Below are positions 16,639 through 32,093 of a stretch of 64,000 nucleotides of DNA, piece after piece (position 1 is the first letter of the stretch; every line of letters begins with the position of its first letter). The notes beneath the pieces were generated by a model. That model made no database searches. It saw only the letters and a list, made by a program, of their open reading frames with translations, and was not told where the DNA came from. Made by a program: the position numbers and the translations under genes. The DNA lies in IMG/VR virus record IMGVR_UViG_3300025450_000002, positions 1,738 through 65,737 of that record; one strand, written 5' to 3'. Source of the stretch: a virus (taxonomy: Duplodnaviria; Caudoviricetes).

Positions 16639-16640
16639 TC

Positions 16641-16856: not shown

Positions 16857-16962
16857 CACCAGACCGGCGCAAGCCGGTTTGATACCAGTTACCTATCCCC
16901 GAGCGTGTTAAGCGTGCGTGTGGTCAAGCGTGTTAAATAGAGTTCCACTTAGGCGTGGAAGT

Positions 16963-16995
16963 TTGCATATCAATCAATTTATCAGGTATATATAA
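16963..16995 (+). promoter_or_regulatory. Early sigma70-like promoter abutting a TTCCAC-N6-GTGGAA site
   Basis: TTGCAT-N18-TATATA. Confidence 0.55.
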
Positions 16996-17060
16996 CTTAC
17001 CTAAGCAATATCGTTTAGGTTTTAATCAACGCATTACTTATTTTATAAGGAGAAGTAAAC

Positions 17061-17705
17061 ATGGTTACTAAAACCAAAAACCCCGTATTATCCCTCAACG
17101 TTACATCTTTAAAAGATGGTGCTTATCAACAAGCCAAAGCAAACGATACAATCCGTGTAGTTGCTCGTTATGCTATCAATAACATTGTAGGCTTTCCTGA
17201 AGATATCCCTAAGGAATCTTTAGAGCAGTTGAATGAGGGTTATCTCTTAAGATGGAATGAAAATAATCCCCCTGTTACATACGCCGTTATCAATGACCAT
17301 TTTATTACATACGACGAAGCAATCCATAAGGACTGTGAAAAGCGTGTTATTGGTGCTGATTACATTATGTCATTCAGTGGTCAGGCTTTTGGTGCATTAA
17401 AAGAGTCTGAACCATACTTACATGAGTTGTTAGTTCCAATTCGTAAGAAAATTCAAACTTACTGCAGTAACAGGGTCAACGATTTAAAGCGTGTAGGTAA
17501 ACAGATAGTCAAAGAGTCAGACCCTGCTAGTAATACACGCTCATCAATTAAGAGTTTCAACGAAGTTGTCAAGGAAGTATTCGACGGCAAGAATGGTTTA
17601 GTTGCACGTTGCAAGACTGCTAAAAAGCAACGCAACGATACTGAAGCCGACGAAGTAAAATTAACTCAATCAATTAACGCTTTCATGAAAGTATGGAATA
17701 GTTAA
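17061..17705 (+). CDS. Monocistronic early protein, unknown function
   Basis: 214 aa; own promoter, AAGGAGAAGT RBS and terminator. Confidence 0.8.
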   Translation: MVTKTKNPVLSLNVTSLKDGAYQQAKANDTIRVVARYAINNIVGFPEDIPKESLEQLNEGYLLRWNENNPPVTYAVINDHFITYDEAIHKDCEKRVIGADYIMSFSGQAFGALKESEPYLHELLVPIRKKIQTYCSNRVNDLKRVGKQIVKESDPASNTRSSIKSFNEVVKEVFDGKNGLVARCKTAKKQRNDTEADEVKLTQSINAFMKVWNS

Positions 17706-17715
17706 TTATTTTTAG

Positions 17716-17748
17716 ACCTGATACACGCAAGTGTATCAGGTTTTTTTT
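17716..17748 (+). terminator. Rho-independent terminator
   Basis: ACCTGATACAC-GCAA-GTGTATCAGGT followed by T-tract. Confidence 0.85.
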
Positions 17749-17837
17749 CGTCCGTCAACTATGAAACCAGTTACATATTTGTGCGTGCGTGAGTGTGCAT
17801 CATTTAATTTTATTCTAAATGACAGGATTTACTTTGC

Positions 17838-18424
17838 TTTCCACGTGGACGTGGAAAAATTCCAAGTTTTTGACGTCGCCCTCATGTGTTCGACAAAAAA
17901 ATTCTAGAATTTTTATAACAACTTGGAATTTTTTTCGCTTGTAACTTATTGATTTAGTTAAACAATAAAAAAAATTCCAAAAATTCCAACTTTTTTTGGG
18001 AGTATGTCAGGTTAAAAGCAGTTTTTTTCATATCAAGAGAGTCTTGCATAGAGTGCATATTAGTAAATAAAAAAATCGCCTGCAAAGTCCCGTATACTTA
18101 AAAAAACATGGAATTTTTGGAATTTTTGGAATTTTTTATATATTATTATTATTATTATTATTATTTAATTAATAAATACAAGGACTTAGCGATTTTCACC
18201 AACAAAAAATCAAGCACTTACCTCAACCCCAAACTTGGAATTTTTCTTAGAATTTTCCATCAAACTTGGAATTTTTTACCCACCACCTCAAACTAACTAA
18301 ATAAACTAAAGGGGTATTGTTATATGTAAAGTTATGTTATACTTATAACAGATGGGAGAAGTAAATTAACTCACCATCTACTTAGCGTCGTATTTTTATT
18401 TAATCTTCCACGTCCACGTGGAAA
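17838..18424. other. Putative replication origin: iterons, IHF sites, AT-rich core, terminal 19-bp inverted repeat
   Basis: About 11 copies of TTGGAATTTT/AAAATTCCAA in both orientations; (TAT)8 at 18141-18164; IHF consensus at 17942 and 18208. Confidence 0.65.
18315..18356 (+). promoter_or_regulatory. Early promoter, near-duplicate of the one at 19814
   Basis: Extended -10 TG-T-TATACT; shared ATATGTAAAGTTAT..TATACTTATAACAG.TGGGA. Confidence 0.65.
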
Positions 18425-18440
18425 ACCTTAGGAGAATGTC

Positions 18441-18638
18441 ATGGATAACAACCAAACTGCATTGAACGCTGTATTAACTTATAGACTCAAGAACACACAG
18501 GCTATCATCGAGGAGATTTTTACCCCAATGCAACGTGCTGAACTGCAACAACGTATTGACTCACTTCGTGCTATCCAAGTTGAAGACGAATACATACAAC
18601 AGAATGTAGTTGACTACATGGTAACGACCTTTCGCTAA
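18441..18638 (+). CDS. Early hypothetical protein
   Basis: 65 aa; AGGAGAA RBS. Confidence 0.7.
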   Translation: MDNNQTALNAVLTYRLKNTQAIIEEIFTPMQRAELQQRIDSLRAIQVEDEYIQQNVVDYMVTTFR

Positions 18639-18717
18639 TTAGTTTTTCACTACATGGTGGAACGTAAAACTTCCACCTATTCCATTTCTATTTATCTATT
18701 TTTATTTAGGAGAAGTT

Positions 18718-18930
18718 ATGAGTGCAATCAAAAGACAATACATGAACTGGTGCGAGCAACACAATATAGAACCTGAAGATGACCTTGCATGGCTTCACAA
18801 AGCAGTCGAGCAACCACAATGGGTCAACGACTTTAACAACTGGCTAGACCAAATCACTTATAAGCATCCACTATCAGATGGAGAACTAAATGACATGAAC
18901 AACACGAACATGGAGAACGACAATGATTGA
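18718..18930 (+). CDS. Early hypothetical protein
   Basis: 70 aa; AGGAGAAGT RBS. Confidence 0.7.
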   Translation: MSAIKRQYMNWCEQHNIEPEDDLAWLHKAVEQPQWVNDFNNWLDQITYKHPLSDGELNDMNNTNMENDND

Positions 18931-19141
18931 TGAATCTTTTACACCACAGTGCAAGTTATGTGGTTCTATCTATGATAAGCGTCGCTTTGATATAGGATTC
19001 TTATTCTGCATGCCATGTGGTAACGACGTAGCCAAGCAAGTCAAACGCACAGTAGTGCCAATGCACAAATCAAACTACATGATGGTCACAAACCGAGATG
19101 ACTTAATCGGTATTAACAACAAGGGAGGACTTGTCAAATGA
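18923..19141 (+). CDS. Zinc-finger early protein (CxxC...CxxC, DksA/TraR-finger-like)
   Basis: CKLCG...R...G...CMPCG...PMHKSNY. Confidence 0.7.
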   Translation: MIDESFTPQCKLCGSIYDKRRFDIGFLFCMPCGNDVAKQVKRTVVPMHKSNYMMVTNRDDLIGINNKGGLVK

Positions 19142-19171
19142 TAACCAATGAACAGAAGAAAGGGGAGTGAA

Positions 19172-19627
19172 ATGGGATATAGGTCAGCAGTAGCATACAC
19201 GATCAGGTTTATACCTGATGAAAACGAGAAGCCTTTAGGCAAGGTGCGTGATTCATTTTATACATTCTTAGCCGAAGCGAAAGCCAAGACAGAAACACAG
19301 TTATGTTTCGACGAAGACCAAGCCATGAATGTCAAAGAGGAAAATGGCGAGGGGTTTTATGTTAATGAGCAAGAGATGAAGATTGACTTCCTTGCGTGGC
19401 ACGTCAAGTGGTATGACGGCTATCCTGATGTCGATTGTCATGAAGCGTTACTCTCATTAGCGCAAGAGTGGTGCGAAGATGAAGCGACAGGTAACCCATA
19501 TATCGGTGGTGCTTATGTAAGGATTGGCGAGGAAGTAGATGACAACGACGAGCGATGGTTTGGAACTGCCGAGAGCGACTGGTTATCTATCAGTAGAACT
19601 ATATGTAGAGATGGGAAAGAGATATGA
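19172..19627 (+). CDS. Early hypothetical protein (MGYRS...KWY...VRIGEE family; start corrected)
   Basis: GGGGAG RBS before ATG 19172. Confidence 0.7.
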   Translation: MGYRSAVAYTIRFIPDENEKPLGKVRDSFYTFLAEAKAKTETQLCFDEDQAMNVKEENGEGFYVNEQEMKIDFLAWHVKWYDGYPDVDCHEALLSLAQEWCEDEATGNPYIGGAYVRIGEEVDDNDERWFGTAESDWLSISRTICRDGKEI

Positions 19628-19803
19628 GAATAACAGTTGAAAGACGTAGCGTGTATGGCAACGAGATGATATACCCCAAGTGCGAGACTGCGAAACTATT
19701 GGCGAAACTAGCCAACCATGTGACGCTAACCAAGCATGATATATCAGTTATTAAACAATTAGGCTATGAAGTTGTATGCCTAGCAAACGAAATAACTTTA
19801 TAG
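19624..19803 (+). CDS. Small early protein (59 aa, MRITVERRSVYGNEMIYPKC...IKQLGY)
   Basis: Missed by ORF track; ATGA overlap with upstream stop. Confidence 0.7.
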   Translation: MRITVERRSVYGNEMIYPKCETAKLLAKLANHVTLTKHDISVIKQLGYEVVCLANEITL

Positions 19804-19813
19804 AATAAAAGAC

Positions 19814-19856
19814 TTGTATAATATGTAAAGTTATAGTATACTTATAACAGTTGGGA
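19814..19856 (+). promoter_or_regulatory. Early sigma70 promoter
   Basis: TTGTAT-N17-TATACT. Confidence 0.7.
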
Positions 19857-19867
19857 AAGGAATATTT

Positions 19868-19960
19868 ATGTTAGAAGATATCGTAGTGAAGTTAGTAATC
19901 GTAGGTGCTTTAATCTATTTAGCCTTCCACGTTATAGTGGATTTTCATTTAATCAATTAA
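19868..19960 (+). CDS. Membrane micro-peptide (30 aa, MLEDIVVKLVIVGALIYLAFHVIVDFHLIN)
   Basis: AAAGGA RBS; hydrophobic; directly after promoter. Confidence 0.55.
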   Translation: MLEDIVVKLVIVGALIYLAFHVIVDFHLIN

Positions 19961-19969
19961 GGAGAAGTT

Positions 19970-20896
19970 ATGGACAGTATTAGAACCAACCTAGAAATGC
20001 CTGAGCATTTAATCTCACTAGCGACAAGCGCAGTATTAGTAAGCGTCGATGTCAGCGTGTGGTCAGCAACGAAACAAGATAGGGGTATCAGTGATGAGGT
20101 TACTACATCAAAGAATGCAGACAAGTCGGCAGGTCGCTACGTTAAGAATCTATTGGCGAACCACCCGTCGCACAAAGCCATTGTGAATTATAGGCAGACT
20201 ATATATAACTGGCTTCAGCGTCGCACTTATAAGTGGAATCAGTCACAAGAATTACTACCATGCGTTGACCTACCCAAGTTTAAGCAAGAGTGGCATGAAC
20301 ATGAAACTGCGTTCCACGTCCTCGTGGATACGTTTAAGAACCAGTATGATTCTATCGTATCGGATATGGCTTTCAAACAAGGTGATATGTTTAACAGAAA
20401 TGATTATCCACCCAAAGAACAGATTACATCAAAGTTTAGTCTTAACTTGTATGTGAGCGAAGTGCCTGTTAATGACTTTAGATGCAATATTGCAAGGGAT
20501 ATCGCAGATGATCTTTTTAGTTCATTGTCCAAGCAATCCAAGTCAATTATAGAGAACATAGCGAACGAACAAGTCGAAAGGCTAATAGATGTGATGCAGA
20601 GTATCTCGCATTGTTGTGGTGTGGACGAGTTAGTTCCGAAAGATGGTGGTGAAATAAAAACCAAGCGTCGCAAGATATACGATACGACGATACAGAAAGC
20701 GTTAGAGATGTGTGAGAGTTACAAAGTATTTAATCTTAAGCATGATAACGAGCTAGAACTGGCACGTGCATCGCTAGAGAAAGTCTTACATGGTGTTACG
20801 GCAGAGGATATCCGAGATAGTGACGCTGTGCGTTCCAATGTCAAAGAGGGGGTTGATGGCATTTTGTCGAAGTTCGGTGCATTTAGTTGTGTATAG
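19970..20896 (+). CDS. Helical early protein (DUF3150-like) associated with the AAA/vWA pair
   Basis: VSVWSATKQD...KNLL...GDMFNRNDYP pattern; AAGGAGAAGT RBS. Confidence 0.6.
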   Translation: MDSIRTNLEMPEHLISLATSAVLVSVDVSVWSATKQDRGISDEVTTSKNADKSAGRYVKNLLANHPSHKAIVNYRQTIYNWLQRRTYKWNQSQELLPCVDLPKFKQEWHEHETAFHVLVDTFKNQYDSIVSDMAFKQGDMFNRNDYPPKEQITSKFSLNLYVSEVPVNDFRCNIARDIADDLFSSLSKQSKSIIENIANEQVERLIDVMQSISHCCGVDELVPKDGGEIKTKRRKIYDTTIQKALEMCESYKVFNLKHDNELELARASLEKVLHGVTAEDIRDSDAVRSNVKEGVDGILSKFGAFSCV

Positions 20897-20904
20897 GAGG
20901 TTTC

Positions 20905-21045
20905 ATGGATGAAGCATTAATGCAGTTTTATGAATGGAAAGAATGGGCAGTGCCATTCACACCCGAAGGGGAAAAGTTGTATGAAGCACAGAAGACAAGC
21001 TGGTTGGCTTGTTGGGAATTTTTAACTAATCAAAAGGAGAAGTAA
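20905..21045 (+). CDS. Small Trp-rich early protein (46 aa)
   Basis: AGGAGG RBS; fills gap; stop abuts next ATG. Confidence 0.65.
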   Translation: MDEALMQFYEWKEWAVPFTPEGEKLYEAQKTSWLACWEFLTNQKEK

Positions 21046-22119
21046 ATGAGTAAAATGAATTTTGTTCCAACAGTATCTATCAACGAGTTGCGTAAACTCA
21101 TTCCTGTAATAGCATCAGAATTGACAGTAGTCATAACTAGCGAACCTGGTTGTGGCAAGACAAGTCTATTAAAAATGATGGAAGAAGATCTTGGAGATGC
21201 TTACCAATATATCTACGTTGACTGTCCTGTAAAAGATATGTCAGACATAGGTATGACAATACCGAACCACACTACCAAGACCCTTGAGTATTATGTGTCT
21301 AGTCTATTCTGTTTAGATGACCCAAGACCTAAGGTTATTTGTCTAGACGAGTTCATGAAGTCACCCAAGTTATTGCAAGTTATCTTTACTCGCATGATGT
21401 TAGATAAAATGGTAGGCGATGTTCCACTACCACGTGGAAGCCTAATCTTTGCAACGAGTAACAATGCTTCCGATGGTGTAGGCGACTCAATGCTTGCTCA
21501 TGCTGGCAATCGTGTATGTAAGGTAGAGATGGCAAAGCCTGATACTAATACTTGGCTTCAATGGGCATCAGATAATAATATCTCTCGTGTTGTCAGAGCG
21601 TTCGTTGCGTTGTTCCCAAGAGTTCTCGCATCATATAGAGATGGCAACCAAGACGATAACCCATACATCTTCAAACCTAACATGAACACCTTGTCATTCT
21701 GTTCGCCTCGTTCCTTAGCGAAGTGCGACGTGATTGTAAAGAATAGAGATGTCTTAGGTGAGAATGCAACAATGGTCGCACTTGCAGGCACTATCGGTCA
21801 GAGTGCATCGGCAGATATGTCAGCGTTTCTATCGCTAGAGAAAACCTTAATAGATGTAAAAGATATTCTCAAAGCACCAGAGTTAGTAAAGATACCTGAC
21901 GAGATATCAGCGCAGTTAATGATTATGTTTCAGGCAGTAGATGTATTAGAGACGCAAGACGAGTTGACGAAGTTCATGTCATTCGTTAATAAGATTCCTA
22001 GTTCAGAAGTCCAAGCCGTATTCTTTACTATGATGATGCGTAATGCAAAGGCAATTAAGTTGGCTCGCAATAATGCACAGATTGCAGAGTGGGCTAAGAA
22101 CAACCATGAATTATTTTAA
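21046..22119 (+). CDS. MoxR-like AAA+ ATPase
   Basis: Walker A EPGCGKT, Walker B ICLDE, ATSN sensor 1, SPRS sensor 2. Confidence 0.85.
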   Translation: MSKMNFVPTVSINELRKLIPVIASELTVVITSEPGCGKTSLLKMMEEDLGDAYQYIYVDCPVKDMSDIGMTIPNHTTKTLEYYVSSLFCLDDPRPKVICLDEFMKSPKLLQVIFTRMMLDKMVGDVPLPRGSLIFATSNNASDGVGDSMLAHAGNRVCKVEMAKPDTNTWLQWASDNNISRVVRAFVALFPRVLASYRDGNQDDNPYIFKPNMNTLSFCSPRSLAKCDVIVKNRDVLGENATMVALAGTIGQSASADMSAFLSLEKTLIDVKDILKAPELVKIPDEISAQLMIMFQAVDVLETQDELTKFMSFVNKIPSSEVQAVFFTMMMRNAKAIKLARNNAQIAEWAKNNHELF

Positions 22120-22129
22120 GGAGAAGTAA

Positions 22130-22336
22130 ATGTTAAAGACATTAAATATAACAGACGAAGAGTTTACTAGATTAACAGACCAAGCAACAATAGATATGTA
22201 TGAAGAATACTTATCGGAATCAGAAGATAAAGTCACTAGCGATCTTCGTGAAGACACATTCATCAATGGGTTTCGATTAGGTATGAAATTCGTAGCCTTA
22301 TTAATTAAGAAACAGATAGAAGGAGAAAGTAAATGA
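22130..22336 (+). CDS. Early hypothetical protein
   Basis: 68 aa; AAGGAGAAGT RBS. Confidence 0.7.
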   Translation: MLKTLNITDEEFTRLTDQATIDMYEEYLSESEDKVTSDLREDTFINGFRLGMKFVALLIKKQIEGESK

Positions 22337-22527
22337 TTACGATAACACCAAGCGAGTTTATTTTAATAATATGGGGGATAGTTATGACTGTCTTATGGCA
22401 AAGAGCATTATACAAGTCAGAGGAGTTCAAACAGTTTACAGTTCGCAAGTTGCAAGAGATTGTGAAAGGCGAAGCGAAGATTGTAGACAATGGCGAATCA
22501 ATCCAAATAATTAGGATAAAGGACTAA
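22333..22527 (+). CDS. Small membrane protein
   Basis: N-terminal TM helix; AAGGAGAAAGT RBS. Confidence 0.65.
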   Translation: MITITPSEFILIIWGIVMTVLWQRALYKSEEFKQFTVRKLQEIVKGEAKIVDNGESIQIIRIKD

Positions 22528-22529
22528 TC

Positions 22530-23819
22530 ATGGAAATGAAAAACAAACAGGAAACAAGACTGAAGAAAGCACATATCGCATTGATGAAACACCCTGAGAC
22601 TGCGTTGTATTCAGGTGTGATGCTTATGGGTAAGAGCGAGATAGCGGACGAAGTATTTACTGCATATACAGATGGTGTGAACAAGAGATATTCTAAGCCA
22701 TTCGTTGAGAAAATACTTATCGAAGCGAAGTTGCGTGGCTTAGTCTTGCATGAGAATCTTCACGTTGCATTGAAACAGATTCCAAGAGGTAAGGATATGT
22801 TCAAGGAAGATAGACAGATTGCAAACATGGCAGCCGACTTTGTGGTCAACGACATAATAAAGAATATTACAGGAACAGTTGCGAATGGTCACGAGCCTAT
22901 CGTAGAGTTACCTGATGGTGCGTTGTATGACTCATTCTTTCATAATTGGTCGATGCGTGAAGTATATAACCACATACGCAAAGAGAATCCTCAGCGACAG
23001 AAACCTAGTGATAGCTCATGTGATGAGCCTACCAAAGGCGATGGAGATGAAGATAGTAGTCCACGTGGTAGTGGAACGATATATGCGAATGGCAAGCCTT
23101 ATGATATTGGGCATCAATTCGATGAACATGACTGGGAATCGTATGTCGAAGGACTCAGCGACGAGGAACGCAAGGAGTTGGGAGATAAGATTGACCGAGC
23201 CTTGCGTGAGGGTGGTATGCTTGCAGGTCGTATGGGTGGCAAGATGCCTAGACAGATTAGTGACTTGCTTGAACCGAGAGTAGATTGGCGAGAAGTCTTG
23301 CGTGAGTTTGTCGCTTCCACGATGAAAGGGAACGATGAATACACATGGCGCAAGATGAGTAAGCGTCACATGGCTAATGACATTTATCTACCAAGCATGG
23401 AGAACGAGACGATCGGTGAGGTTGTCGTTGCGATAGATACTTCAGGTTCAATCGGTGAGCGTGAGTTGACAGAGTTTGCAACGGAACTGGCATCAATCGT
23501 CGATCTTGTGTCGCCTGAAGCAGTTAGAGTTATATGGTGGGATTACGATGTTCATGGTGAGCAATACTTCAAGCCTGAACATTACAGAGATATTGCATCA
23601 TTACTAAAACCCTTAGGTGGTGGTGGCACTAGAGTCTCATCAGTCAACCATTACATCAATGAGAAGAAGATTAACGCAGAGTGTGTCATCGTGTTTACCG
23701 ATGGTTATGTAGAAAGTGACATCGAGTGGACAATCTCTTCCCCTACCCTGTGGATGGTAACTCAGAACAAAGCACTTGAAGTCCCATCAGGTAAGAAAGT
23801 CGTAGTTAACAATGATTGA
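22530..23819 (+). CDS. DUF2201-type metallopeptidase plus vWA domain protein
   Basis: TAYTDG, HENLH (HExxH), MIDAS DTSGS, GGGGT, VFTDG. Confidence 0.85.
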   Translation: MEMKNKQETRLKKAHIALMKHPETALYSGVMLMGKSEIADEVFTAYTDGVNKRYSKPFVEKILIEAKLRGLVLHENLHVALKQIPRGKDMFKEDRQIANMAADFVVNDIIKNITGTVANGHEPIVELPDGALYDSFFHNWSMREVYNHIRKENPQRQKPSDSSCDEPTKGDGDEDSSPRGSGTIYANGKPYDIGHQFDEHDWESYVEGLSDEERKELGDKIDRALREGGMLAGRMGGKMPRQISDLLEPRVDWREVLREFVASTMKGNDEYTWRKMSKRHMANDIYLPSMENETIGEVVVAIDTSGSIGERELTEFATELASIVDLVSPEAVRVIWWDYDVHGEQYFKPEHYRDIASLLKPLGGGGTRVSSVNHYINEKKINAECVIVFTDGYVESDIEWTISSPTLWMVTQNKALEVPSGKKVVVNND

Positions 23820-24120: not shown

Positions 24121-25164
24121 ATGGATAGCACATTGAATTGGAATAGACTTACAAACATAACTAAAACTGTGAAACCCTTTCGTGGAACAACCAATAGGTT
24201 TCCTATCGCTAATAGATCTCATAATACAAAGTGTTTTTATGTAGAAGAGTTAGATGGCGAAACTGTATACCGAGTGACGTATGGCTATCATTACAAAGAA
24301 ATCTTCCATACTAAAGAAGAATGGGAGAAAGACCCAAATAAAATCTCTTGTAGAGACTGGGAAGAAGATGAGAGCAAGAAGTATGTTACCTACACTACTA
24401 TACCTAGAGACTTAGGCATCGTGCGTTCTGACAACACGTTTCAGTTTACTGCCAAATACTACGGACAAGGTGACAATACTATGCTTAGTGGTTGGGGGCA
24501 AGGTTGGTTCTTTAGTAGTTCACGTCATGGTGGAATGGTATATATGAACGCATACAGAGGTGATGATAGAAGTATCTTTCATCCGATATTCGAAGGTATG
24601 CGAATCAACATGAATACTATGATGCCCCATGAATCTTCTAACTATCAAGTGTTAGGTAGACGTGTATCACGTATTGATGCCAAGAAGTTTTTAACTAGAT
24701 ACGAAACATTCTACAAAGTAAATGAGGTTATGTTCAAAACGATTGATTGGAAGACATTGATGGATACGGCAGTCGACGTAGTAAGTTCATTGGTAGATGA
24801 AAGTGAGTTACAAAACTATTACATCAGTAGCACATCAAACGAGAAAATAATAACGTGGGCAGACGATAACATTGACGTAGCACCACTTGACTCAGCCCTA
24901 GCATTTGCAGTTGGGCATGACATAGGTAATATGTATCGACGAATGAGAGCGCACGCTATTGACTCAAACAGTAATCAATTCCGTTGGATGGATTCAGAGC
25001 CAATGAATCTCTACGCAAATCTCAAGCGTAAGTTGAATCATGAACTATACAAGCGTCACCATGGAGTAATGAAAGACGTTACGTTCCCGATGGGCAAACC
25101 ATATCCAGCAAGTAACTGGGGGATACGAGTTATGGTTGATGGTAAAGAAGTAAAACAATACTAA
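24121..25164 (+). CDS. Early hypothetical protein
   Basis: 347 aa; AAGGAGAAGT RBS. Confidence 0.8.
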   Translation: MDSTLNWNRLTNITKTVKPFRGTTNRFPIANRSHNTKCFYVEELDGETVYRVTYGYHYKEIFHTKEEWEKDPNKISCRDWEEDESKKYVTYTTIPRDLGIVRSDNTFQFTAKYYGQGDNTMLSGWGQGWFFSSSRHGGMVYMNAYRGDDRSIFHPIFEGMRINMNTMMPHESSNYQVLGRRVSRIDAKKFLTRYETFYKVNEVMFKTIDWKTLMDTAVDVVSSLVDESELQNYYISSTSNEKIITWADDNIDVAPLDSALAFAVGHDIGNMYRRMRAHAIDSNSNQFRWMDSEPMNLYANLKRKLNHELYKRHHGVMKDVTFPMGKPYPASNWGIRVMVDGKEVKQY

Positions 25165-25172
25165 GGAGAATC

Positions 25173-25490
25173 ATGGTTGAAATAGAAAAAGTAGAGATGC
25201 CCTACAAGGAATACGTTATTTCGGACAAGGTAGACGAGAGCCTAGCATATCTTTCTAACTATACTGCTCGACGTGTTAGGTATAAGTTTCCTAATGGATA
25301 CGGCGCTAGTGTTGTTATGGGTAATTTGTTTTATTCCGATGAGGGGACAGGTTTATATGAATTATGTCCCATGAAAGATAATGCGTTGTGGTATGACGCA
25401 GTAGACCCTAGCAACAATGATGTGTATGGGTATCTCAATGATGAAGAGTTATATATTTTATTAACGAAAATTTTAACGAAGGAGAAGTGA
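25173..25490 (+). CDS. Conserved phage protein (YKFPNGYGASVV family)
   Basis: Characteristic FPNGYGASV...GLYEL...DVxGYL pattern. Confidence 0.75.
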   Translation: MVEIEKVEMPYKEYVISDKVDESLAYLSNYTARRVRYKFPNGYGASVVMGNLFYSDEGTGLYELCPMKDNALWYDAVDPSNNDVYGYLNDEELYILLTKILTKEK

Positions 25491-25491
25491 A

Positions 25492-26427
25492 ATGAAATAC
25501 GCAATAGAAGGAATTACAAAGCAAGCAACAATAGACTATATCGAGAGTTCACCAGTAAAGAAACTCATATATGAATTGAATTACAAGTATGGCTTAAAAG
25601 CGTTGACTGTAATAGCAGTCGAAAAACGAGGGGAAAATGTCCGTCACGAGGTTGTGTTAACCGACCCTATGGGTGGGTTTGCCGTAGGTAGAGTATGGAC
25701 AACAGTAGACAATAAAGACATCGTGTATCACTATCGTTCGCCTTACGCTTCAAAGGATAGAGGTAGGACTAGTGAGGATAGAGAAACTTATTATGGTAAG
25801 AAATTATCATCTTTGATGAGTGTGCTAAAAACTAACGAAGTAATACCTACTAAAGATAGTCCACAACTATTAACTATTCATAATCGTATTTTCGCCAATG
25901 CTAATTACTCTTTACAAGAAACACACGGTAAACACAGAAAAGATGTAGAGTTAACTTTAGATGAACAACATTCTTTATTGAGATACGCACTAGGTGAAAC
26001 TACTACTCTATTTGATGAAAATAAATGTAAAAAAATACTTGACAAATATAATACGTTAGATAAAATAAAACAAGAATCAGACGAAGATGTAGATAGGTTC
26101 TTCAACAAAGGTTTCTATGCAGTTGGTGTAGATATGTTTAATCATTTAATAGTGGGGAAAGTTGTGAAAAATAAATCTAGTTACGAAATAGTAGAATCAT
26201 TCGAGAGGGTGATGGACTTCAGTAAGCATGAACATCTACAAGCAATCATGACTATGCAAAAAGTTTATCATGAGCAACAAGGTAAATACACTAAGTTCTA
26301 CGGAAATTACATTCCACTATACAGTGGATACCTAAAAGACCTAGACATCATTCAGATGAATAATCGTGAGCCACACATTCATGACTTAGCTTGGACTCTT
26401 ATCCCATGCACAGCACTTTCCGTATGA
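25492..26427 (+). CDS. Early hypothetical protein
   Basis: 311 aa; AAGGAGAAGTG RBS. Confidence 0.8.
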   Translation: MKYAIEGITKQATIDYIESSPVKKLIYELNYKYGLKALTVIAVEKRGENVRHEVVLTDPMGGFAVGRVWTTVDNKDIVYHYRSPYASKDRGRTSEDRETYYGKKLSSLMSVLKTNEVIPTKDSPQLLTIHNRIFANANYSLQETHGKHRKDVELTLDEQHSLLRYALGETTTLFDENKCKKILDKYNTLDKIKQESDEDVDRFFNKGFYAVGVDMFNHLIVGKVVKNKSSYEIVESFERVMDFSKHEHLQAIMTMQKVYHEQQGKYTKFYGNYIPLYSGYLKDLDIIQMNNREPHIHDLAWTLIPCTALSV

Positions 26428-26777
26428 AGATAGAAATGCTTAGCCCAATAGCACATCAATATACACATGGGCTATATCGTGTGCCGTTACATAAAGACGG
26501 AAATCATTACACACTATTTGTAGCCGATGGGTATAAGAGAGACTTTGACGAGAACACTTTACCTGATGAGATCAAAACTAAGATAGCCATGATACTTGCG
26601 AGAGATAAACAAATCGCACATGACCATGAGTTAACACACTTAGGATTGATGGCATCTGTAAAAGATGATGCGTTAATAGACGTGGGGTGGCAAAGGAGTG
26701 AAAGTTGGTTCATCATCGTGTTACCCATAGCATCGTTAATGAAACTAAGAGGAGAGAATAATGGCGCAGACACCTGA
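26424..26777 (+). CDS. Hypothetical protein (start set at ATGA overlap)
   Basis: Open frame coupled to upstream stop. Confidence 0.65.
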   Translation: MKIEMLSPIAHQYTHGLYRVPLHKDGNHYTLFVADGYKRDFDENTLPDEIKTKIAMILARDKQIAHDHELTHLGLMASVKDDALIDVGWQRSESWFIIVLPIASLMKLRGENNGADT

Positions 26778-27069
26778 AGCAAAAGTTAAAAAGAAAGTAA
26801 AACAGTATCTTACCACTAGAGGTATTTATTTTACTATGCCGTTCACTGCTGGTTTTGGGGCGAACGGAGTGCCTGACATACTTGTGTGTTATCAAGGAAA
26901 GTTTATAGCGATAGAGTGCAAGGCTAATGGCAACAAGCCAACAGCATTACAAGGAGAACACATGAAGAGAATTCAACGTGGGGGTGGAACGGCAGTTGTC
27001 GTTGATGAAAGGAATGTCGACACAATGCTAGAGGGATTATTTGATGATACAGATGATGGGAGATGCTAG
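26761..27069 (+). CDS. VRR-NUC family nuclease
   Basis: TPEAKVK...GVPDI...IECKA...PTALQ...GG. Confidence 0.85.
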   Translation: MAQTPEAKVKKKVKQYLTTRGIYFTMPFTAGFGANGVPDILVCYQGKFIAIECKANGNKPTALQGEHMKRIQRGGGTAVVVDERNVDTMLEGLFDDTDDGRC

Positions 27070-27084
27070 ATAACTGGCTTCAAT

Positions 27085-27306
27085 ATGACCGACCAAGATA
27101 AAGAATATTTAAGAGATTTGTTTGCGTGCTTCGCCATGAATGCGATAGTAAGTCGAGGTATAAGAGAAGAGATAGTAGATAGTGTTGCAGAAAACTCTTA
27201 TATGATGGCAGACGCTATGATGGAAGCCCGCAACAAAAAAGAACCCAAGATGGGTATAACCGCAGTAAACCAACCTAAGAGGAGAAGTAGAAATGAAAGT
27301 AAGTAA
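27085..27306 (+). CDS. Conserved small phage protein (RDxFAxxAM...YxxADAM family)
   Basis: Recognisable motif; 73 aa. Confidence 0.7.
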   Translation: MTDQDKEYLRDLFACFAMNAIVSRGIREEIVDSVAENSYMMADAMMEARNKKEPKMGITAVNQPKRRSRNESK

Positions 27307-27748
27307 AATCCAAGCAGTAAAAAACTTGATGGACAAAAACCCTAGCATGACCGCATCTGAGATATCCAAGAAGTTAGGAATTAAGATTGGCTATGTCTAC
27401 ACAATGATGTCTAAGATAAGAAAACCAAAATTTGATATTAAAAAGATAGAAGCCGTTTTACAGGAAGAAGCATCACCCCCAGTAAGCGTCGAACAGGTAA
27501 AAGATTTTGTATATAGCATTTCACTAGGACGTGGAACAGTAGATAACGTCAATCATCCATCCCATTACAAGACAGGTGGCATTGAAACAATCGACTTCAT
27601 TGAAGCGAAGCAGTTGGGATACCATCTCGGTAACGTCGTCAAATATATTACTAGAGCAGACCACAAGGGTAACAAGTTGGAAGACTTGATGAAAGCCCAA
27701 TGGTATTTGAGCCGTGCGATAGAGAACGAGGAGAAGAATAATGGATGA
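27293..27748 (+). CDS. HTH plus DUF3310 (T7 gp1.7-like nucleotide kinase) protein
   Basis: N-terminal ASEISKKLG HTH; VNHPSHY...ETIDFI...GNVVKY...EDLxKAxWYL. Confidence 0.8.
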   Translation: MKVSKIQAVKNLMDKNPSMTASEISKKLGIKIGYVYTMMSKIRKPKFDIKKIEAVLQEEASPPVSVEQVKDFVYSISLGRGTVDNVNHPSHYKTGGIETIDFIEAKQLGYHLGNVVKYITRADHKGNKLEDLMKAQWYLSRAIENEEKNNG

Positions 27749-28127
27749 AGGATTTGTAATATTACTACTGGCAGGTATCCTTGTTGTAACTAGTGGTATT
27801 GGTGGATGTATGTATGGGATGCCTAAATACAATGTCTATCATCAACAGATGGAAGGCGAAGCCGAATTAGCGAAAGCAAACTTTAGCAAACAAACTGCTA
27901 TACAAGAAGCCCACGCTAAGATGGAATCCGCTAAGTTGCTTGCAGACGCAGAAGTGATCAGGGCTGAAGGAGTTGCAAAAGCTAATAAGATCATTGGCGA
28001 TAGCTTGAACAACAACGAAGCGTATTTGCGATATCTGTATATCAATAATCTTGAACACACGCAGAATCAGATTATCTATGTGCCGACTGAAGCGAATCTA
28101 CCTATTTTAGAAGCAAAGCGTAAGTAA
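27741..28127 (+). CDS. Membrane protein with SPFH/band-7-like coiled coil
   Basis: N-terminal TM helix; AEVIRAEGVAKANKII...YVPTEANLPI. Confidence 0.65.
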   Translation: MDEGFVILLLAGILVVTSGIGGCMYGMPKYNVYHQQMEGEAELAKANFSKQTAIQEAHAKMESAKLLADAEVIRAEGVAKANKIIGDSLNNNEAYLRYLYINNLEHTQNQIIYVPTEANLPILEAKRK

Positions 28128-28133
28128 TTTTTT

Positions 28134-28167
28134 GGGGGGTAAGGTTCATGCCTTGCTCCCCTTTTTT
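28134..28167 (+). terminator. Rho-independent terminator
   Basis: GGGGGTAAGG-TTCATG-CCTTGCTCCC followed by T-tract. Confidence 0.75.
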
Positions 28168-28203
28168 GTAACTATACACCACGTTATTTAAGGAAACTAA
28201 TTT

Positions 28204-28458
28204 ATGTCAACAAGCTCTTTCCCAAGTCCACCACCATTGAGTATATCTTTACCAAATTTAAATATACCATTACCACAAGCACCACCCGAGTATTTACCAA
28301 ATGAAATAGCTGAATATTTAAAGAGTATGGGTTGGGAGATGAACATGAACGGTTCACAATACTTTTTTAGATCGTTGAATGGTCGCCCAGCAGGTTATTA
28401 CAGTTGGAGTGAAGCAGTAACGTATTGCCTAATTAAACCATTTTTAAAGGAGGAGTAA
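28204..28458 (+). CDS. Hypothetical protein
   Basis: 84 aa; AAGGA RBS. Confidence 0.65.
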   Translation: MSTSSFPSPPPLSISLPNLNIPLPQAPPEYLPNEIAEYLKSMGWEMNMNGSQYFFRSLNGRPAGYYSWSEAVTYCLIKPFLKEE

Positions 28459-28459
28459 G

Positions 28460-28810
28460 ATGAGTGAAGAAAAACAAATTGATATTAGCAACGGAGTGAA
28501 CATCGTGTTGGCAAGAATGGACACGCACCCTGAGGAGTTTTGGGGCGAGTGCGAGAAGTGGCGCTTCATCTATAAAGAATATTTTAGAGATGCCATGACA
28601 GAAGTGCAGAAGGGACAGATCTTCGAGAAAATCAAACAGATTCGCATGGAAGAATTTAACCACATGGTATTTGCTACGCTGACCGAAGAGGAAGAAAAAG
28701 AAGAGGAAGAGGACGGTTGGACACCATCCACAGGAATATTTGGAAGTGCGCCAATGAAACGTGAAGGCAGTTCGGTTAACTACCATACTAAGTGGAAGGC
28801 AAAGAAATGA
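28460..28810 (+). CDS. RMxTHPxEF family paralog 1
   Basis: GVNIVLARMDTHPEEF. Confidence 0.75.
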   Translation: MSEEKQIDISNGVNIVLARMDTHPEEFWGECEKWRFIYKEYFRDAMTEVQKGQIFEKIKQIRMEEFNHMVFATLTEEEEKEEEEDGWTPSTGIFGSAPMKREGSSVNYHTKWKAKK

Positions 28811-29160
28811 ACGGTGGAGTAGAAATATTATTAGCGAGGATGGATACGCACCCTGAGGAGTTCTTTCAAGACAGTAGGTGGCGCAATCTTATTATGGACT
28901 TTGTTAGGGACTTACCTAAAGAGGATGTTCAAGCATTAGAAAATAAACTGAAAGAGTGTCGTCAGAAAGAATTTACAGGGATAGTCTTAGAGCGCTTGGT
29001 CAATGAAGAGAAGGAAGATAAAAGACTTATGAGAAATTATAGTAATCCGATGATGTTTCATGGCTTTACGCAATTAGATGCTGATGAAGAGGATATGAAG
29101 GAAGACGGACTGAGCGATGCACAGATTGCAGTAATTAAAAAGATGAAAGGTGAGAAATGA
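28807..29160 (+). CDS. RMxTHPxEF family paralog 2 (start corrected)
   Basis: MNGGVEILLARMDTHPEEF; ATGA overlap. Confidence 0.75.
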   Translation: MNGGVEILLARMDTHPEEFFQDSRWRNLIMDFVRDLPKEDVQALENKLKECRQKEFTGIVLERLVNEEKEDKRLMRNYSNPMMFHGFTQLDADEEDMKEDGLSDAQIAVIKKMKGEK

Positions 29161-29555
29161 CAGCAAATGAATTAATAGATAAGTTAGAAAGTGTAAGTAT
29201 TAGATTGCTGGGTAAAGAAACTGAGCAAGCAGGTAGAGCTATTATTCTTTACAGAGAATCAGCGATTATGCTACTCCAACAAGCCCAAAAAATAGAAGCG
29301 TTGAAAAAAGAACTAGCACTACAAAGACTATCTGATTTTAGTCAAGAGATTGAGGATAGGGAATCTGCTATATACGCAACTGGCTATTGGAAAGGCATTG
29401 AGTATAAAAAAATGCGTGAATTAAGTGATGCAACAATACGAGAACTGTCAGTTGCTTTTATGTTGGTATTACGCAGAACTCCTGAAGATGAACTTTTTGA
29501 AAATGTATATGAATATTCAAAATTACTATTAAAGAAAGCGAGTAGTGAGAAATGA
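29157..29555 (+). CDS. Hypothetical protein
   Basis: 132 aa; ATGA overlaps at both ends. Confidence 0.7.
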   Translation: MTANELIDKLESVSIRLLGKETEQAGRAIILYRESAIMLLQQAQKIEALKKELALQRLSDFSQEIEDRESAIYATGYWKGIEYKKMRELSDATIRELSVAFMLVLRRTPEDELFENVYEYSKLLLKKASSEK

Positions 29556-29698
29556 CACCTAGAGAAGAACTTGTTTACAAATTACGCAGTGAAGGAATGA
29601 TATACAGATTAATAGGTGAACAGCTTGGGGTTACAGGTGTAAGAGCGAATCAAATTTACAAAAAATGCCTAAGAAAAAATGCTAAGAAAGGCGAGTGA
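29552..29698 (+). CDS. Mini sigma70 region-4-like HTH protein (48 aa)
   Basis: Missed by ORF track; MTPREELVYKLRSEGMIYRLIGEQLGVTGVRANQIYKKCLRK. Confidence 0.7.
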   Translation: MTPREELVYKLRSEGMIYRLIGEQLGVTGVRANQIYKKCLRKNAKKGE

Positions 29699-29701
29699 GA
29701 A

Positions 29702-29803
29702 ATGAGTACGTTTTTTGAGTGGTACATTGAAATTTTATGGTTAAGTATGTTTTTAGTTGGTTTTGCTATTGGTGTTGCTTTAAAGATAGGGAAAAAGAAA
29801 TGA
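29702..29803 (+). CDS. Membrane micro-peptide (33 aa)
   Basis: MSTFFEWYIEILWLSMFLVGFAIGVALKIGKKK; stop overlaps next ATG. Confidence 0.6.
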   Translation: MSTFFEWYIEILWLSMFLVGFAIGVALKIGKKK

Positions 29804-30204
29804 ACGCAGGAATTGAAATAATACTAGAGCGTATGAAGACACACCCTGATGAGTTTGTGATAGGATCACCGATCACTTATGATAGTAAATGGGGAAGTTT
29901 TCTTAGAGAGATAATGGACGCTGAATACTTTGATGAAACAGAAAAAGATGCAGTCCGTATCGCTGTTCGTGAAGCAAACCGAGAGGGTTTTACTGGTCGT
30001 GTGATGCAACATTTAGCAGGAGAGGGCGAAGCGAGTGACATGGGAAAGTTCCAATCCCACACGTTTACCACGCAACCAATAAACCCCTATTATGGTCAGG
30101 GGCTGATCAGTCAGTTACAAGCTGGGCAAATAGGCTTAGCCTCGGCACAACAACAGTCGGCGCAACAATCTTCCCTAAGTAAGACGAAGGCAAAACTTAA
30201 ATGA
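29800..30204 (+). CDS. RMxTHPxEF family paralog 3 (start corrected)
   Basis: MNAGIEIILERMKTHPDEF. Confidence 0.75.
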   Translation: MNAGIEIILERMKTHPDEFVIGSPITYDSKWGSFLREIMDAEYFDETEKDAVRIAVREANREGFTGRVMQHLAGEGEASDMGKFQSHTFTTQPINPYYGQGLISQLQAGQIGLASAQQQSAQQSSLSKTKAKLK

Positions 30205-32093
30205 ATCTAATAACATTAGATTTTGAGACGATGTATAGTCAAGACTACTCGCTAACGAAACTCACTACTGAGGAATACATTAGAGACAAACGCTTCGAGG
30301 TGATAGGTGTCGGAGTTAAACTAAACGATGGTGTTACTGAGTGGTTTAGTGGTTCGCATCTTGAGGTCGCTAAATACCTTTCCACCCTGCCGTGGAACGA
30401 TAGTGCCTTACTCTGTCATAACACAATGTTTGATGGTGCGATTCTTAAGTGGCGCTTTCAATTAAGTCCTAAGTTATATCTTGATACTTTGTGTATGGGT
30501 AGGGCTATACATGGCGTAGATGTAGGCGGATCATTAGCCTACCTTGCTGAAAAATATAATTTAGGGAAGAAGGGACATGAGGTAGTTGAGGCTAAAGGTA
30601 AAAATATAACTGGTTTCACAAATAGCGAACTTGCCCAATACGGCGAGTATTGTAAAAATGATGTGGAGTTAACTTTCAAACTTTTCCAAGTATTGTCTAG
30701 TGCGTTTCCTGCCGATGAGATAAACCTGATCGACATGACTTTACGTATGTTTATTCAACCTGTATTACGAGTTGATTATGATTTATTGCAAGAACGATTG
30801 GAAGAACTGAAGCATGAGAAGTTACAGTTATTAGGGACGCTCAAAGAGAAACTAAGTTGTGAAAACGAAGAAGCTGTGCGTAAACGCTTGGCAAGTAATA
30901 AGCAGTTTGCAGGTTTGCTCAAAGAGTTTAATATCCCAGTGCCATTAAAAATAAGTCCTACTACTGGTAAAGAAACATTTGCATTAGCCAAGAACGATAC
31001 AGGCTTTATTGAGTTAGTAGAACATGAAGACCCGTTCGTACAACAACTCGCTGCGGTGCGTTTGGGAACGAAATCAACAATTGAGGAGAGTAGAATTGAA
31101 CGGTTTATCGACGTTGGGGCTAGGAACAAGGGTATGCTACCAATCCCCCTTAAATATTATGGCGCACATACAGGTAGGTGGGCGGGTTCGGACAAGGTCA
31201 ACTTCCAAAACTTACCGAGTAGAGACAAGAAGAAAAAGGCTCTTAAAAATGCCGTTATCGCTCCTGACGGGTATGTCGTTATCAACTGTGATTCGTCGCA
31301 AATTGAAGCTAGAGTCCTTGCGTGGTTATCAGGTCAGGAAGGGCTGGTCAATTCGTTTGCCAATGGGAACGATGTTTACTCCGAGTTTGCGTCGAAAATA
31401 TATGAAAGACCAATCAGTAAAAAAGACCCTATTGAAAGGTTTGTGGGCAAGACGTGCATACTCGGGCTGGGATATGGGACTGGTGCGTTAAAGTTACAAC
31501 ACACATTAAAGACACAACCCCCTGGAGCTGACCTTACGGAAGATGTGTGTGATGATATTGTTAAGCTATACAGATCTGAGAATGATCAGATTGTGAAGCT
31601 GTGGAAGGAAGGCGACAAAGCATTAAAGGCTATGAATAATTGGACTAAAGATAAAAAGCCTTTCTACTATGGCAAGCATAGATGTGTTGAAGTGCATAGC
31701 GATGGTATACGCTTGCCGAACGGACTCTATATCCGTTACCCTGAACTCCAGCTTAACACTGATGAACTTATTAGCGGATACCAATATAAGTCACGCAAAG
31801 GGCCCGTTAGTTTGTGGGGCGGATCAGTTGTGGAAAACGTAGTGCAAGCACTTGCAAGAATTATTGTAGGTGAACAGATGTTAAAACTAACTGAGCGTTA
31901 TCGCCCAGTGCTTACTGTACACGACGCAGCGGTGTGTGTCGTGCCTGAAGATGATGTAGATGAGGCTTGTGCATGGATCGTCGAGGTCATGTCAACAGCA
32001 CCAGACTGGGCTAAAGGACTACCCGTCGCTTGTGAGGCTCAATATGGATATAACTATGGGGAAATGAAAGAATGGAAACCGAAGAAAGAATAA
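30201..32093 (+). CDS. DNA polymerase family A with 3'-5' exonuclease
   Basis: ExoI LDFET, HNxxFD, TGRW...NFQNLP, motif A DSSQIEAR, motif B RFVGKxxxLGxGYG, motif C VHD. Confidence 0.92.
   Translation: MNLITLDFETMYSQDYSLTKLTTEEYIRDKRFEVIGVGVKLNDGVTEWFSGSHLEVAKYLSTLPWNDSALLCHNTMFDGAILKWRFQLSPKLYLDTLCMGRAIHGVDVGGSLAYLAEKYNLGKKGHEVVEAKGKNITGFTNSELAQYGEYCKNDVELTFKLFQVLSSAFPADEINLIDMTLRMFIQPVLRVDYDLLQERLEELKHEKLQLLGTLKEKLSCENEEAVRKRLASNKQFAGLLKEFNIPVPLKISPTTGKETFALAKNDTGFIELVEHEDPFVQQLAAVRLGTKSTIEESRIERFIDVGARNKGMLPIPLKYYGAHTGRWAGSDKVNFQNLPSRDKKKKALKNAVIAPDGYVVINCDSSQIEARVLAWLSGQEGLVNSFANGNDVYSEFASKIYERPISKKDPIERFVGKTCILGLGYGTGALKLQHTLKTQPPGADLTEDVCDDIVKLYRSENDQIVKLWKEGDKALKAMNNWTKDKKPFYYGKHRCVEVHSDGIRLPNGLYIRYPELQLNTDELISGYQYKSRKGPVSLWGGSVVENVVQALARIIVGEQMLKLTERYRPVLTVHDAAVCVVPEDDVDEACAWIVEVMSTAPDWAKGLPVACEAQYGYNYGEMKEWKPKKE

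Follow-up and report, generated by a model that had tools for sequence, protein, structure and literature searches.

A lineage-variable palindrome array in the early arm of a freshwater tailed phage, probably bound by a phage-encoded protein

The locus and its palindromes

The DNA analysed here, referred to below as the window, is a stretch of 64,000 nucleotides (bases 1738–65737 of the single 65,737-bp contig IMGVR_UViG_3300025450_000002) that stems from freshwater metagenomes and belongs to a tailed phage, and our subject is an array of inverted repeats of the form TTCCAC-N6-GTGGAA in its early arm. The contig ends overlap by 127 bases, so that the genome is complete and either circular or terminally redundant. 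The minus strand encodes terminase, portal, a major-head-like protein and further virion proteins; the plus-strand arm, from about 16.3 to 40.7 kb, holds small early genes and an AAA ATPase with its DUF2201/VWA partner, together with a kinase-like protein, DNA polymerase, exonuclease, helicase and primase-helicase.

A full scan recovered every one of the five perfect and seven one-mismatch sites that an earlier note on this DNA had listed by eye (Table 1), and all 12 lie within 16943–30397. Perfect sites averaged 0.00 in 100 dinucleotide-preserving shuffles, and against the 12 sites with at most one mismatch the shuffles gave a mean of 0.14 and a maximum of 1. The remaining ~50.5 kb of the window hold no site at ≤1 mismatch and the 1,737 bases outside the window none at ≤2 mismatches, so that the proposed restriction to the early arm holds for the whole 65.7-kb genome. 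Two-mismatch sites number six: the two named before, 20221 and 24518, lie inside the span, as do 23315 and 23738, which the earlier list lacked along with 10399 and 34937 outside it. By our own arithmetic, 12 random points on a 65.6-kb circle would share one 13.5-kb arc with a probability of ~3e-7 (n*f^(n-1) = 12*(0.205)^11), and with spacers of 0–12 enumerated this is the only 6+6 inverted repeat with more than 3 copies in the genome. Counting plus-strand open reading frames (ORFs) of at least 60 aa, seven of the 12 sites are coding (20312, 21422, 23059, 26312, 26972, 27519 and 30380) and the first five are intergenic; the eight coding sites of the earlier count are reached only through a possible 30-codon ORF (19868–19960) around site 19925.

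Table 1. Palindrome sites and features discussed with them, in window coordinates (HTH, helix-turn-helix)
Feature	Position	Strand	Remarks
Perfect site TTCCACTTAGGCGTGGAA	16943..16960	.	intergenic, 100 nt 5' of the 17061 gene; preceded by TAAATAGAG
Promoter-like pair, weaker			downstream side of site 16943: TTGCAT-N18-TATATA after the core
First early protein gene (17061)	17061..17705	+	214 aa; palindrome sites on both sides
Terminator-like hairpin	17714..17743		upstream of site 17839
Perfect site, 8-bp arms (TTCCACGT GG ACGTGGAA)	17839..17856	.	intergenic
Perfect site, 8-bp arms	18406..18423	.	17 nt to the ATG at 18441, 6 nt to its AGGAG
One-mismatch site	18645..18662	.	intergenic, 55 nt to the ATG at 18718; preceded by TAATTAGTT
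One-mismatch site	19925..19942	.	27 nt 5' of the start codon (ATG) of 19970; a site is present here in relatives of every type
Weak site, 2 mismatches	20221..20238	.	within the 19970 gene
One-mismatch site	20312..20329	.	within the 19970 gene; relatives' site at about +333 to +360 of the gene
Perfect site	21422..21439	.	within the AAA ATPase gene, translated V-P-L-P-R-G-S
One-mismatch site	23059..23076	.	Gly/Asp-rich linker of the DUF2201 metallopeptidase/VWA gene; place orthologous in other types
Weak site, 2 mismatches	24518..24535	.	within the 24121 gene
One-mismatch site	26312..26329	.	near the 3' end of the 25492 gene
One-mismatch site (TTCAAC...)	26972..26989	.	within the Hjc-like gene; identical in relative L012
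One-mismatch site	27519..27536	.	within the nucleotide-kinase-like gene 27293–27748; preceded by TATATAGCA
Perfect site, last of the array	30380..30397	.	180 nt into the DNA polymerase gene
HTH protein gene	32977..33162	+	61 aa; Sigma70_r4 1.9e-9, HTH_3 7.7e-7; present in L012
HTH-like protein gene (…YVANALEVTRMTVHSWFRG…)	37161..37475	+	104 aa

A strong terminator-like hairpin at 28134–28161 (+; 12 pairs, then T6) closes the block with 11 of the 12 sites, and only 30380 lies beyond it. The gene that houses site 26972 (26761–27069, +) encodes a 102-aa protein matching the Pfam archaeal Holliday-junction resolvase Hjc at 21.3 bits, the cut-off being 21.1. The small-RNA stretch at 34170–34310 contains no copy of the palindrome.

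One geometry and many palindromes among related phages

Among GenBank phages, megablast found no match to positions 16000–31000 and no close DNA relative, and no RNA data set is listed as containing the stretch. TerL is ~50% identical to that of Phage DSL-LC04, phage 023Pt_psg01 and the pelagiphages HTVC027P and HTVC023P; DSL-LC04 was set aside as a comparison genome, its gene order being different despite the ~50% identity of TerL, and the excerpts at hand of the literature on the pelagiphage (SAR11-infecting phage) relatives contain nothing relevant on promoters, palindromes or transcription. In IMG/VR, a scan for the form of the site with 8-bp arms gave 18 loci. Twelve are syntenic relatives with TerL 68–93% identical, and 11 of these carry 2–10 sites each (2 each in L008, L004 and L015); the other six (L002, L003, L007, L010, L014 and L016) were dropped as chance matches, each having a single site and none resembling the window in its proteins. 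A search with the 308-aa product of the 19970 gene, which is conserved, yielded 32 loci, 12 of them without any TTCCAC site, and these 12 bear other palindromes of equal geometry at the same places: TTCCGTC-N4-GACGGAA, ATCTGTCA-N2-TGACAGAT, ACCCAGC-N4-GCTGGGT, TCTCAC-N6-GTGAGA and GTCCAT-N6-ATGGA. Finally, a profile search of IMG/VR returned 287 relatives, of which 80 were kept, and added the types TCCCAC, TTTCAC, GTCAC(A) and TCTTG; for P0102, the search of IMG/VR gave no relative.

Palindromes could be typed in 64 of 67 non-redundant loci (from 103 in all), with the untyped L076, L077 and L099 dropped from the type matrix; in L128 (4.6 kb), L170 and L171 the palindrome was not callable. Among the 64 typed loci we find at least 10 palindrome types, lettered A to J, of one 18-bp geometry, in which the half-sites are separated by 4–6 free bases and differ between lineages. 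Own-type counts are 183 for A, 77 for G, 18 for B, 7 for C, 23 for D, 4 for E, 5 for F, 6 for H, 3 for I and 1 for J, and off the diagonal the counts are close to 0 unless the two types are one base per half-site apart. Confinement is found in the relatives as well: all 10 sites of G001 fall into 14307–24355 and all 7 of the complete genome G002 into 29820–40156, and 10 of 11 sites in G003 and 8 of 9 in G004 lie within one arm. We conclude that the array is real, strongly non-random and clearly maintained by selection. The site, being an 18-bp palindrome with a half-site that varies among related phages, is no DnaA box (TTWTNCACA), in agreement with the earlier note; the same variability spoke against the likeness to parS half-sites that the note had drawn, as did the lack of any ParB_N (PF02195) match in six frames of the 65.7-kb genome (positive control in 11 of 14 genomes).

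The exchange of one word for another is well seen in the relatives L045 (type A) and L049 (type D), whose DNA is 84–90% identical and which each bear their own word at each of five shared site places. Three shared places lie in conserved genes, namely in the gap between the Cys pairs of a zinc-ribbon protein, in the VWA linker and in the xPLPxGS codons of the ATPase. At the ATPase place, the sequence matches the genome's own word in types A, B and D and does so partly in G, and there is no site in C, I and J; type E and two type-A loci bear a D-like word there. Tracking of the palindrome type at this place is thus real but partial.

The zinc-ribbon protein itself (72 aa, with two CxxC pairs and a C-terminal VPMHKSNY...NNKGG, encoded at 18923–19141, +) is kept in all relatives, and many of these spell out their own palindrome in the six codons that separate the Cys pairs, a place at which the gene in the window has no site. 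The 308-aa protein used as a query above (19970–20896, +) is 64–79% identical in the 80 kept relatives, its neighbours being far less conserved. It has no Pfam or PHROG match, and its gene precedes the AAA ATPase and the DUF2201 metallopeptidase/VWA pair. Upstream of it, the early region is a mosaic between relatives.

The conserved element extends beyond the hexameric half-sites. The two best sites in the window have 8-bp arms (TTCCACGT-NN-ACGTGGAA), and none of the 12 window sites has a spacer that begins with A or ends with T, as had been noticed before; a set of 44 non-redundant sites, drawn from the window and from close relatives, contains one spacer that begins with A and two that end with T. 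The rule is explained by a seventh half-site position preferring G or T, plus its mirror image. Upstream, 2–3 bases away from the core, lies an AT-rich TAAnTAG. Among the 44 sites, its most constant base is the A at −8 (39 sites), followed by the A at −4 (35), the T at −5 (34) and the T at −9 (30). In many relatives the per-locus consensus shows a downstream flank (cgnTAnnTAa) that mirrors the upstream one; in the window the downstream flank is the weaker of the two. The flank TAAnTAgcg is common to all palindrome types. Judged from these alignments, the full site measures ~36 bp and consists of an 18-bp core of two lineage-specific 6–8-bp half-sites between shared AT-rich flanks (TAAnTAgcg ... 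cgnTAnnTA). The flanks could provide a second contact of the same protein, the site of a second, conserved protein, or an element for bending or melting.

With respect to genes, 395 of 602 distinct site contexts are inside plus-strand ORFs and 137 lie no more than 40 nt before an ORF start, with the mode at 20–29 nt; all sites lie in the plus-strand transcription unit. The site at the head of the arm adjoins a canonical promoter of the host (sigma-70-like) type in relatives: in five of them (L038, L039, L040, L042 and L043) the core is followed, after 2–3 bases, by TTGAC(A/T)-N17-TA(T/A)TAT. Among sites less than 260 nt upstream of a gene of the 17061 family, 11 of 34 are followed by a −35/−10 pair within 1–7 nt; the corresponding numbers are 8 in 590 for sites elsewhere and 18 in 2000 for randomly chosen places. 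A protein that occupied this first site together with its flank would mask the −35 element, which is the classic layout of autoregulation. The conserved flanks, the adjacency of the first sites to promoters and the position of many relatives' sites just before ribosome-binding sites go beyond what the earlier note had described.

Read-out of the sites and the candidate binder

Based on these findings, the palindromes are probably DNA sites to which a phage-encoded factor binds, and on the best reading of the sequences the specificity of this binder changed many times among related phages. Compensatory covariation is absent over 250 sites, both in the nine flank pairs (same-site complementarity 2.90 versus 3.32 cross-site within type) and in the three inner pairs (1.02 versus 1.30); taken together with the presence of one sequence per genome, this points to protein read-out of double-stranded DNA. 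The alternative that fares best, although we regard it as unlikely, is an RNA hairpin in early transcripts, recognised by an RNA-binding protein or nuclease of the phage that would be specific to each lineage, and serving in processing, in stability or in translational control of the gene behind the adjacent ribosome-binding site. The location of all sites in a plus-strand transcription unit, their accumulation 20–29 nt before ORF starts and the stronger upstream flank in the window would suit such a role. Folded as RNA, the window sites form small hairpins of −1.4 to −12.3 kcal/mol, and eight of the 12 fold with z ≤ −2.5 (−6.9 to −12.3 kcal/mol). The mismatches are asymmetric between the strands as well, with G.T outnumbering A.C by 146 to 104 (p 0.009), meaning that G.U-compatible mismatches are favoured on the plus strand, and with the left arm mismatched 219 times and the right arm 123 times. 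This asymmetry weighs against a read-out of DNA, as an RNA role would produce it; it may also result from the strong composition skew of the arm, which can generate a G.T excess. However, the part conserved within a genome is the stem sequence and not the loop, and A-form RNA stems are poor targets for sequence read-out. In a structured RNA or an RNase III-type processing hairpin, pairs are kept and the sequence is free, whereas the arm sequence is fixed here within each genome. It likewise speaks against RNA that most site contexts are inside ORFs, that the conserved site 26972 forms no RNA hairpin (−1.4 kcal/mol), that the first sites lie upstream of early promoters and are perhaps untranscribed, and that Rfam gave no family match.

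The binder must differ between close relatives, and between genomes otherwise 75–87% identical, DNA likeness is lost at the very stretch that holds the homologues of the 17061 protein, which makes this protein a candidate. It was among those put forward in the earlier note and is still the best one. The family is present in 16 of 16 sources reaching far enough upstream, often as two paralogs, each with a site before it; its members are stand-alone proteins of about 200–230 aa, and a set of 1.84 billion proteins contains 338 cluster representatives. An AlphaFold model (predicted local distance difference test, pLDDT, 83) predicts a 36-residue helix (118–153) rich in Arg and Lys, in the middle of which the hexamer TYCSNR (residues 133–138) would be located. 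Among the 150 representatives listed, the Tyr of this hexamer is almost fixed and positions three, five and six are highly variable, which in such an alignment is the pattern of a specificity-determining patch. Over 104 ORFs, types A and G have xY(C/K)SNR, E has FCSNR, F has YCSN(R/K) and H has YASN(N/K), while YISDK or YVSDT is found in B, YISTK in C, YCQGA, FMSGC or YRSGC in D, YRDGR in I and YRTEK in J. A two-by-two table of the CAC half-site and Arg at the sixth hexamer position reads 57/12/2/1.

Several observations weigh against this assignment. The link between hexamer and type is confounded by descent: the tree holds ~5 changes and 1 independent pair on well-supported branches, so that no test of the link can reach significance, and the 17061-family tree itself is not grouped by palindrome type. 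A crude column screen over 29 gene families finds type-linked columns in many of them, as descent alone produces, and does not single out the 17061 family, in which no single column separates type A from type G. Type H has CAC yet lacks the Arg, and paralogs in one genome bear different hexamers. The 17061 protein has no match in profile searches of Pfam, PHROG or PDB sequences, and its model no clear fold match in PDB/BFVD (Foldseek best E 0.55; VIA best Z 6.4). In view of the descent caveat in particular, we rate the chance that the 17061 protein is the binder, as suggested by these sequence patterns, at about one in two. The check set beforehand, a search for lineage-specific palindromes that co-vary with a candidate protein, thus turned up the palindromes, and a co-variation of the 17061 protein that is suggestive, not significant.

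A weak Atlas lead towards a relaxase for the 17061 protein (score 0.90, 124/256 features) was not used because no HUH-type motif is conserved in the alignment. Other proteins of the phage were considered as readers of the variable half-sites. The 37161 protein, which has an HTH-like stretch and was named as a possible binder in the earlier note, is 57–59% identical to its homologues in relatives of types A, B, C and D, and these homologues are nearly identical to one another; such conservation across types rules it out as a half-site reader, and it could at most read the shared AT-rich flanks. The 25492 family was rejected since it is nearly identical in L045 (type A) and L050 (type D). The 61-aa Sigma70_r4/HTH protein is not shared among relatives: it was not found in the records of five relatives, in a search without a positive control, and has no match in the type-A relative L008.

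The reading that we prefer, with a probability of about 0.5 given what sequence comparison offers, is that the palindromes are operators for a symmetric phage-encoded DNA-binding protein, likeliest the 17061 protein, which would combine autoregulation with a stoperator-like shut-off of early genes. Host RNA polymerase would start at the sigma-70-type early promoters, and the first early protein (17061) would accumulate. As a dimer or a higher form, it would read the half-site via the hypervariable hexamer on its long basic helix and occupy the site adjoining the −35 element of its own promoter, thereby regulating itself; it would also occupy the sites before ribosome-binding sites and in genes over the first 10–13 kb, where the occupied sites would act as road-blocks, in stoperator fashion, and limit or shut off early transcription. 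Co-infecting relatives would no longer respond to one another's protein once the specificity had changed. The parts of this scheme that we infer are the identity of the binder, its binding as a dimer and the sign of the regulation. Sites for a dimeric protein acting on the early arm in the manner of stoperators had already been contemplated in the earlier note, and we retain this as the best interpretation. Two further points do not sit well with it. Road-blocks inside essential genes are an odd design for a lytic phage, and we found no integrase or resolvase: six frames of the genome hold neither a Phage_integrase domain (positive control in 14 of 14 genomes) nor a Resolvase domain (12 of 14). 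In addition, the window's own first sites fail the promoter filter described above.

Somewhat less probable than an RNA hairpin is the possibility that the sites are phage-specific promoters, for comparison with which the T4 late, T7-type and N4 hairpin promoters come to mind, with TAATTAG as a −10-like element and the palindrome as the initially transcribed or specificity region, used by a phage sigma-like factor or an unrecognised RNA polymerase. The gap between the AT-rich element and the core is fixed at 2–3 nt on the coding strand, many sites lie just upstream of genes, and a giant 2248-aa virion-side protein ending the late arm recalls the N4 layout. A promoter, however, would require neither symmetry nor a downstream flank that mirrors the upstream one, in some cases 6 nt separate the site from a Shine-Dalgarno sequence, only site 30380 lies beyond the strong terminator at 28134–28161, and canonical sigma-70 promoters adjoin the first sites. 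No RNA polymerase was detected, the 2248-aa protein and a 929-aa protein having no PHROG match and Pfam giving LPD38 alone; a search with PF00940 gave no match, but its positive control was silent too. The 2248-aa protein (40854–47600, −) is situated at the end of the late arm, which in N4-like phages is the place of the virion RNA polymerase; it has no PHROG match, and LPD38 (a 'large polyvalent protein' domain, 1.2e-15, residues 1936–2123) is its sole match.

To a similarly low degree we credit loading or anchoring sites for a DNA-handling protein without regulatory function, such as a partition- or condensin-like clamp, a factor for nuclease protection or one for genome entry. Many dispersed copies in one contiguous domain, some of them in genes, resemble other dispersed palindromes such as parS clusters, the O_B sites of KorB and the centromere sites of N15. 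No ParB_N is encoded, though, and there is no ParA-like match among the ORFs scanned; moreover, the placement by promoters and ribosome-binding sites points to gene control. Very improbable, finally, are elements of recombination or DNA structure (cruciforms for the Hjc-like resolvase, PeSL-like cassette seams, or replication starts by easily melted DNA), for even if AT-rich flanks beside an inverted repeat favour extrusion, an Hjc-like gene of borderline score lies in the arm and the early region upstream of the 19970 gene is a mosaic, sites at orthologous codons of conserved genes are not cassette seams, arms of 6–8 bp are short for cruciforms, there is no covariation, and a role of structure only would leave the one sequence per genome unexplained.

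Returning to operators read by the 17061 protein, one may tentatively go further. The 17061 family might be a new DNA-binding class without a known fold, reading the half-site with a 'reprogrammable' six-residue cassette on one long helix and forming together with ~10–17 operators a private early switch of lytic freshwater phages; protein and sites would have been re-coded repeatedly, in essential genes too, by diversifying selection, a likely source of which would be the shut-down of a same-type co-infecting relative (immunity without lysogeny). We consider this rather doubtful as a whole. If it were true, hundreds of natural protein–site pairs would allow a code from residues to bases to be worked out. 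Already if the preferred operator reading holds, the pairs would form a natural series for how a protein of unrecognised fold reads DNA, and a large group of abundant uncultured freshwater phages (287 IMG/VR relatives) would run their early programme via a private operator array whose specificity was re-invented at least 10 times, with sites rewritten in conserved-gene codons after each change. The palindrome would serve as a sequence-only marker sorting phages into 'immunity-like' types, and there would be a case for asking if lytic phages compete via trans-acting early-gene repressors. For annotators, it would be a warning that a strong palindrome within a phage gene may serve as a functional DNA site.

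Known repeat systems and further repeats in the arm

The nearest described system, by analogy, is found in Cluster A mycobacteriophages (L5, Bxb1 and the TipsytheTRex repressor) with their network of operators and stoperators. According to the portions of the reports available (PMC9283540, PMC6550527), a short site recurs there 20–30 times along the transcription units, at promoters as well as within genes and between them; a single phage protein on these sites blocks initiation and elongation, and site motif and repressor change together between sub-lineages, giving rise to distinct immune specificities. The Cluster A sites, as described in the same portions (PMC9283540, PMC6550527), are asymmetric 13-bp elements that act in one orientation relative to transcription, spread genome-wide in temperate phages and bound by a monomer with an HTH and a 'stoperator' domain. 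The array described here is alike in that a repeated site occurs at promoters as well as within and between genes (5 intergenic sites and 7 in ORFs in the window), and on the preferred reading it would control both initiation and elongation. The palindrome type changes between relatives and the candidate's hexamer with it, with too few independent pairs for a test. The array differs from that of Cluster A in having an 18-bp palindromic core in every type with shared flanks, of which only the flank strength is uneven, in its confinement to 10–13 kb of the early arm, in a candidate binder without an HTH match or fold match (which may still be a distant relative), and in that no lysogeny gene was found when integrase and resolvase domains were searched for in six frames.

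Cluster O mycobacteriophages carry a 17-bp dyad, TGTTCGG-N3-CCGAACA, in more than 30 copies per genome, the function and binder of which are described as not known in the available part of the report (PMC4351075). As far as that part goes, this repeat is likewise a palindrome, with an invariant 7-bp arm, a free centre and copies between and inside ORFs near their ends; its copies are scattered over the entire genome and do not differ between the five phages described, whereas here at least 10 palindromes are found and only in the early arm. In SPbeta, as summarized in the accessible part of the source, the repeated element SPBRE is bound genome-wide by the master repressor MrpR, a protein of unexpected fold (PMC10516654). 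MrpR has, by the same excerpt, a tyrosine-recombinase-like fold and keeps lysogeny, and neither this fold nor this lifestyle is seen here.

Dispersal of one palindrome over a replicon, as in our array, is also typical of KorB/O_B and ParB/parS. KorB is a dimeric silencer with 12 palindromic O_B operators on plasmid RK2, at promoters and far away from them; KorB and ParB both carry the ParB N-terminal domain, and parS is a 16-bp palindrome with abutting half-sites. In contrast, no ParB N-terminal domain is encoded by our phage, and its half-sites are 6 bp apart and lineage-variable. The conserved inverted repeats (CIRs) of the Streptomyces phage phiC31 are elements of the 17-bp class upstream of many early genes and are bound by repressor gene products. 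That phage is temperate and its sites are intergenic, whereas many sites are in genes here, and we know of no report of many CIR specificities among close relatives. N4-type promoters, used by a virion RNA polymerase, have a 5–7-bp stem and a 3-nt loop upstream of early starts; the loops of the present palindromes measure 2–6 nt and are not conserved, and no RNA polymerase was detected in the 2248-aa protein. What sets the present array apart from the Cluster A network is a symmetric site, confinement to one arm, the lack of a lysogeny module and a candidate binder without a recognisable domain, and its set of natural specificities is unusually rich.

Other repeats accompany the palindromes. 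The stretch between sites 17839 and 18406 (17857–18300) is AT-rich and without convincing genes, and contains ~11 TTGGAATTTTT / AAAAATTCCAA iterons in both orientations plus a (TAT)8 run; the iteron includes TTCCA, that is, five of the six half-site bases, and the stretch may be an origin or a store of half-sites. A ~30-bp repeat, ATATGTAAAGTTAT..TATACTTATAACAG, with a −10-like TATACT occurs at 18321–18351 and 19821–19850, 60–85 nt upstream of sites 18406 and 19925, and in partial copies near 15918 and 16124; it may represent a host-type early promoter. In the relatives, palindromes of the kind GTTCT-N-AGAAC or GTTCTA...TAGAAC are found at 6460–6550 of L038 and just past the second site in L005, L013 and L015, in the non-coding stretch after the 17061 homologue, and constitute a second, different repeat family.

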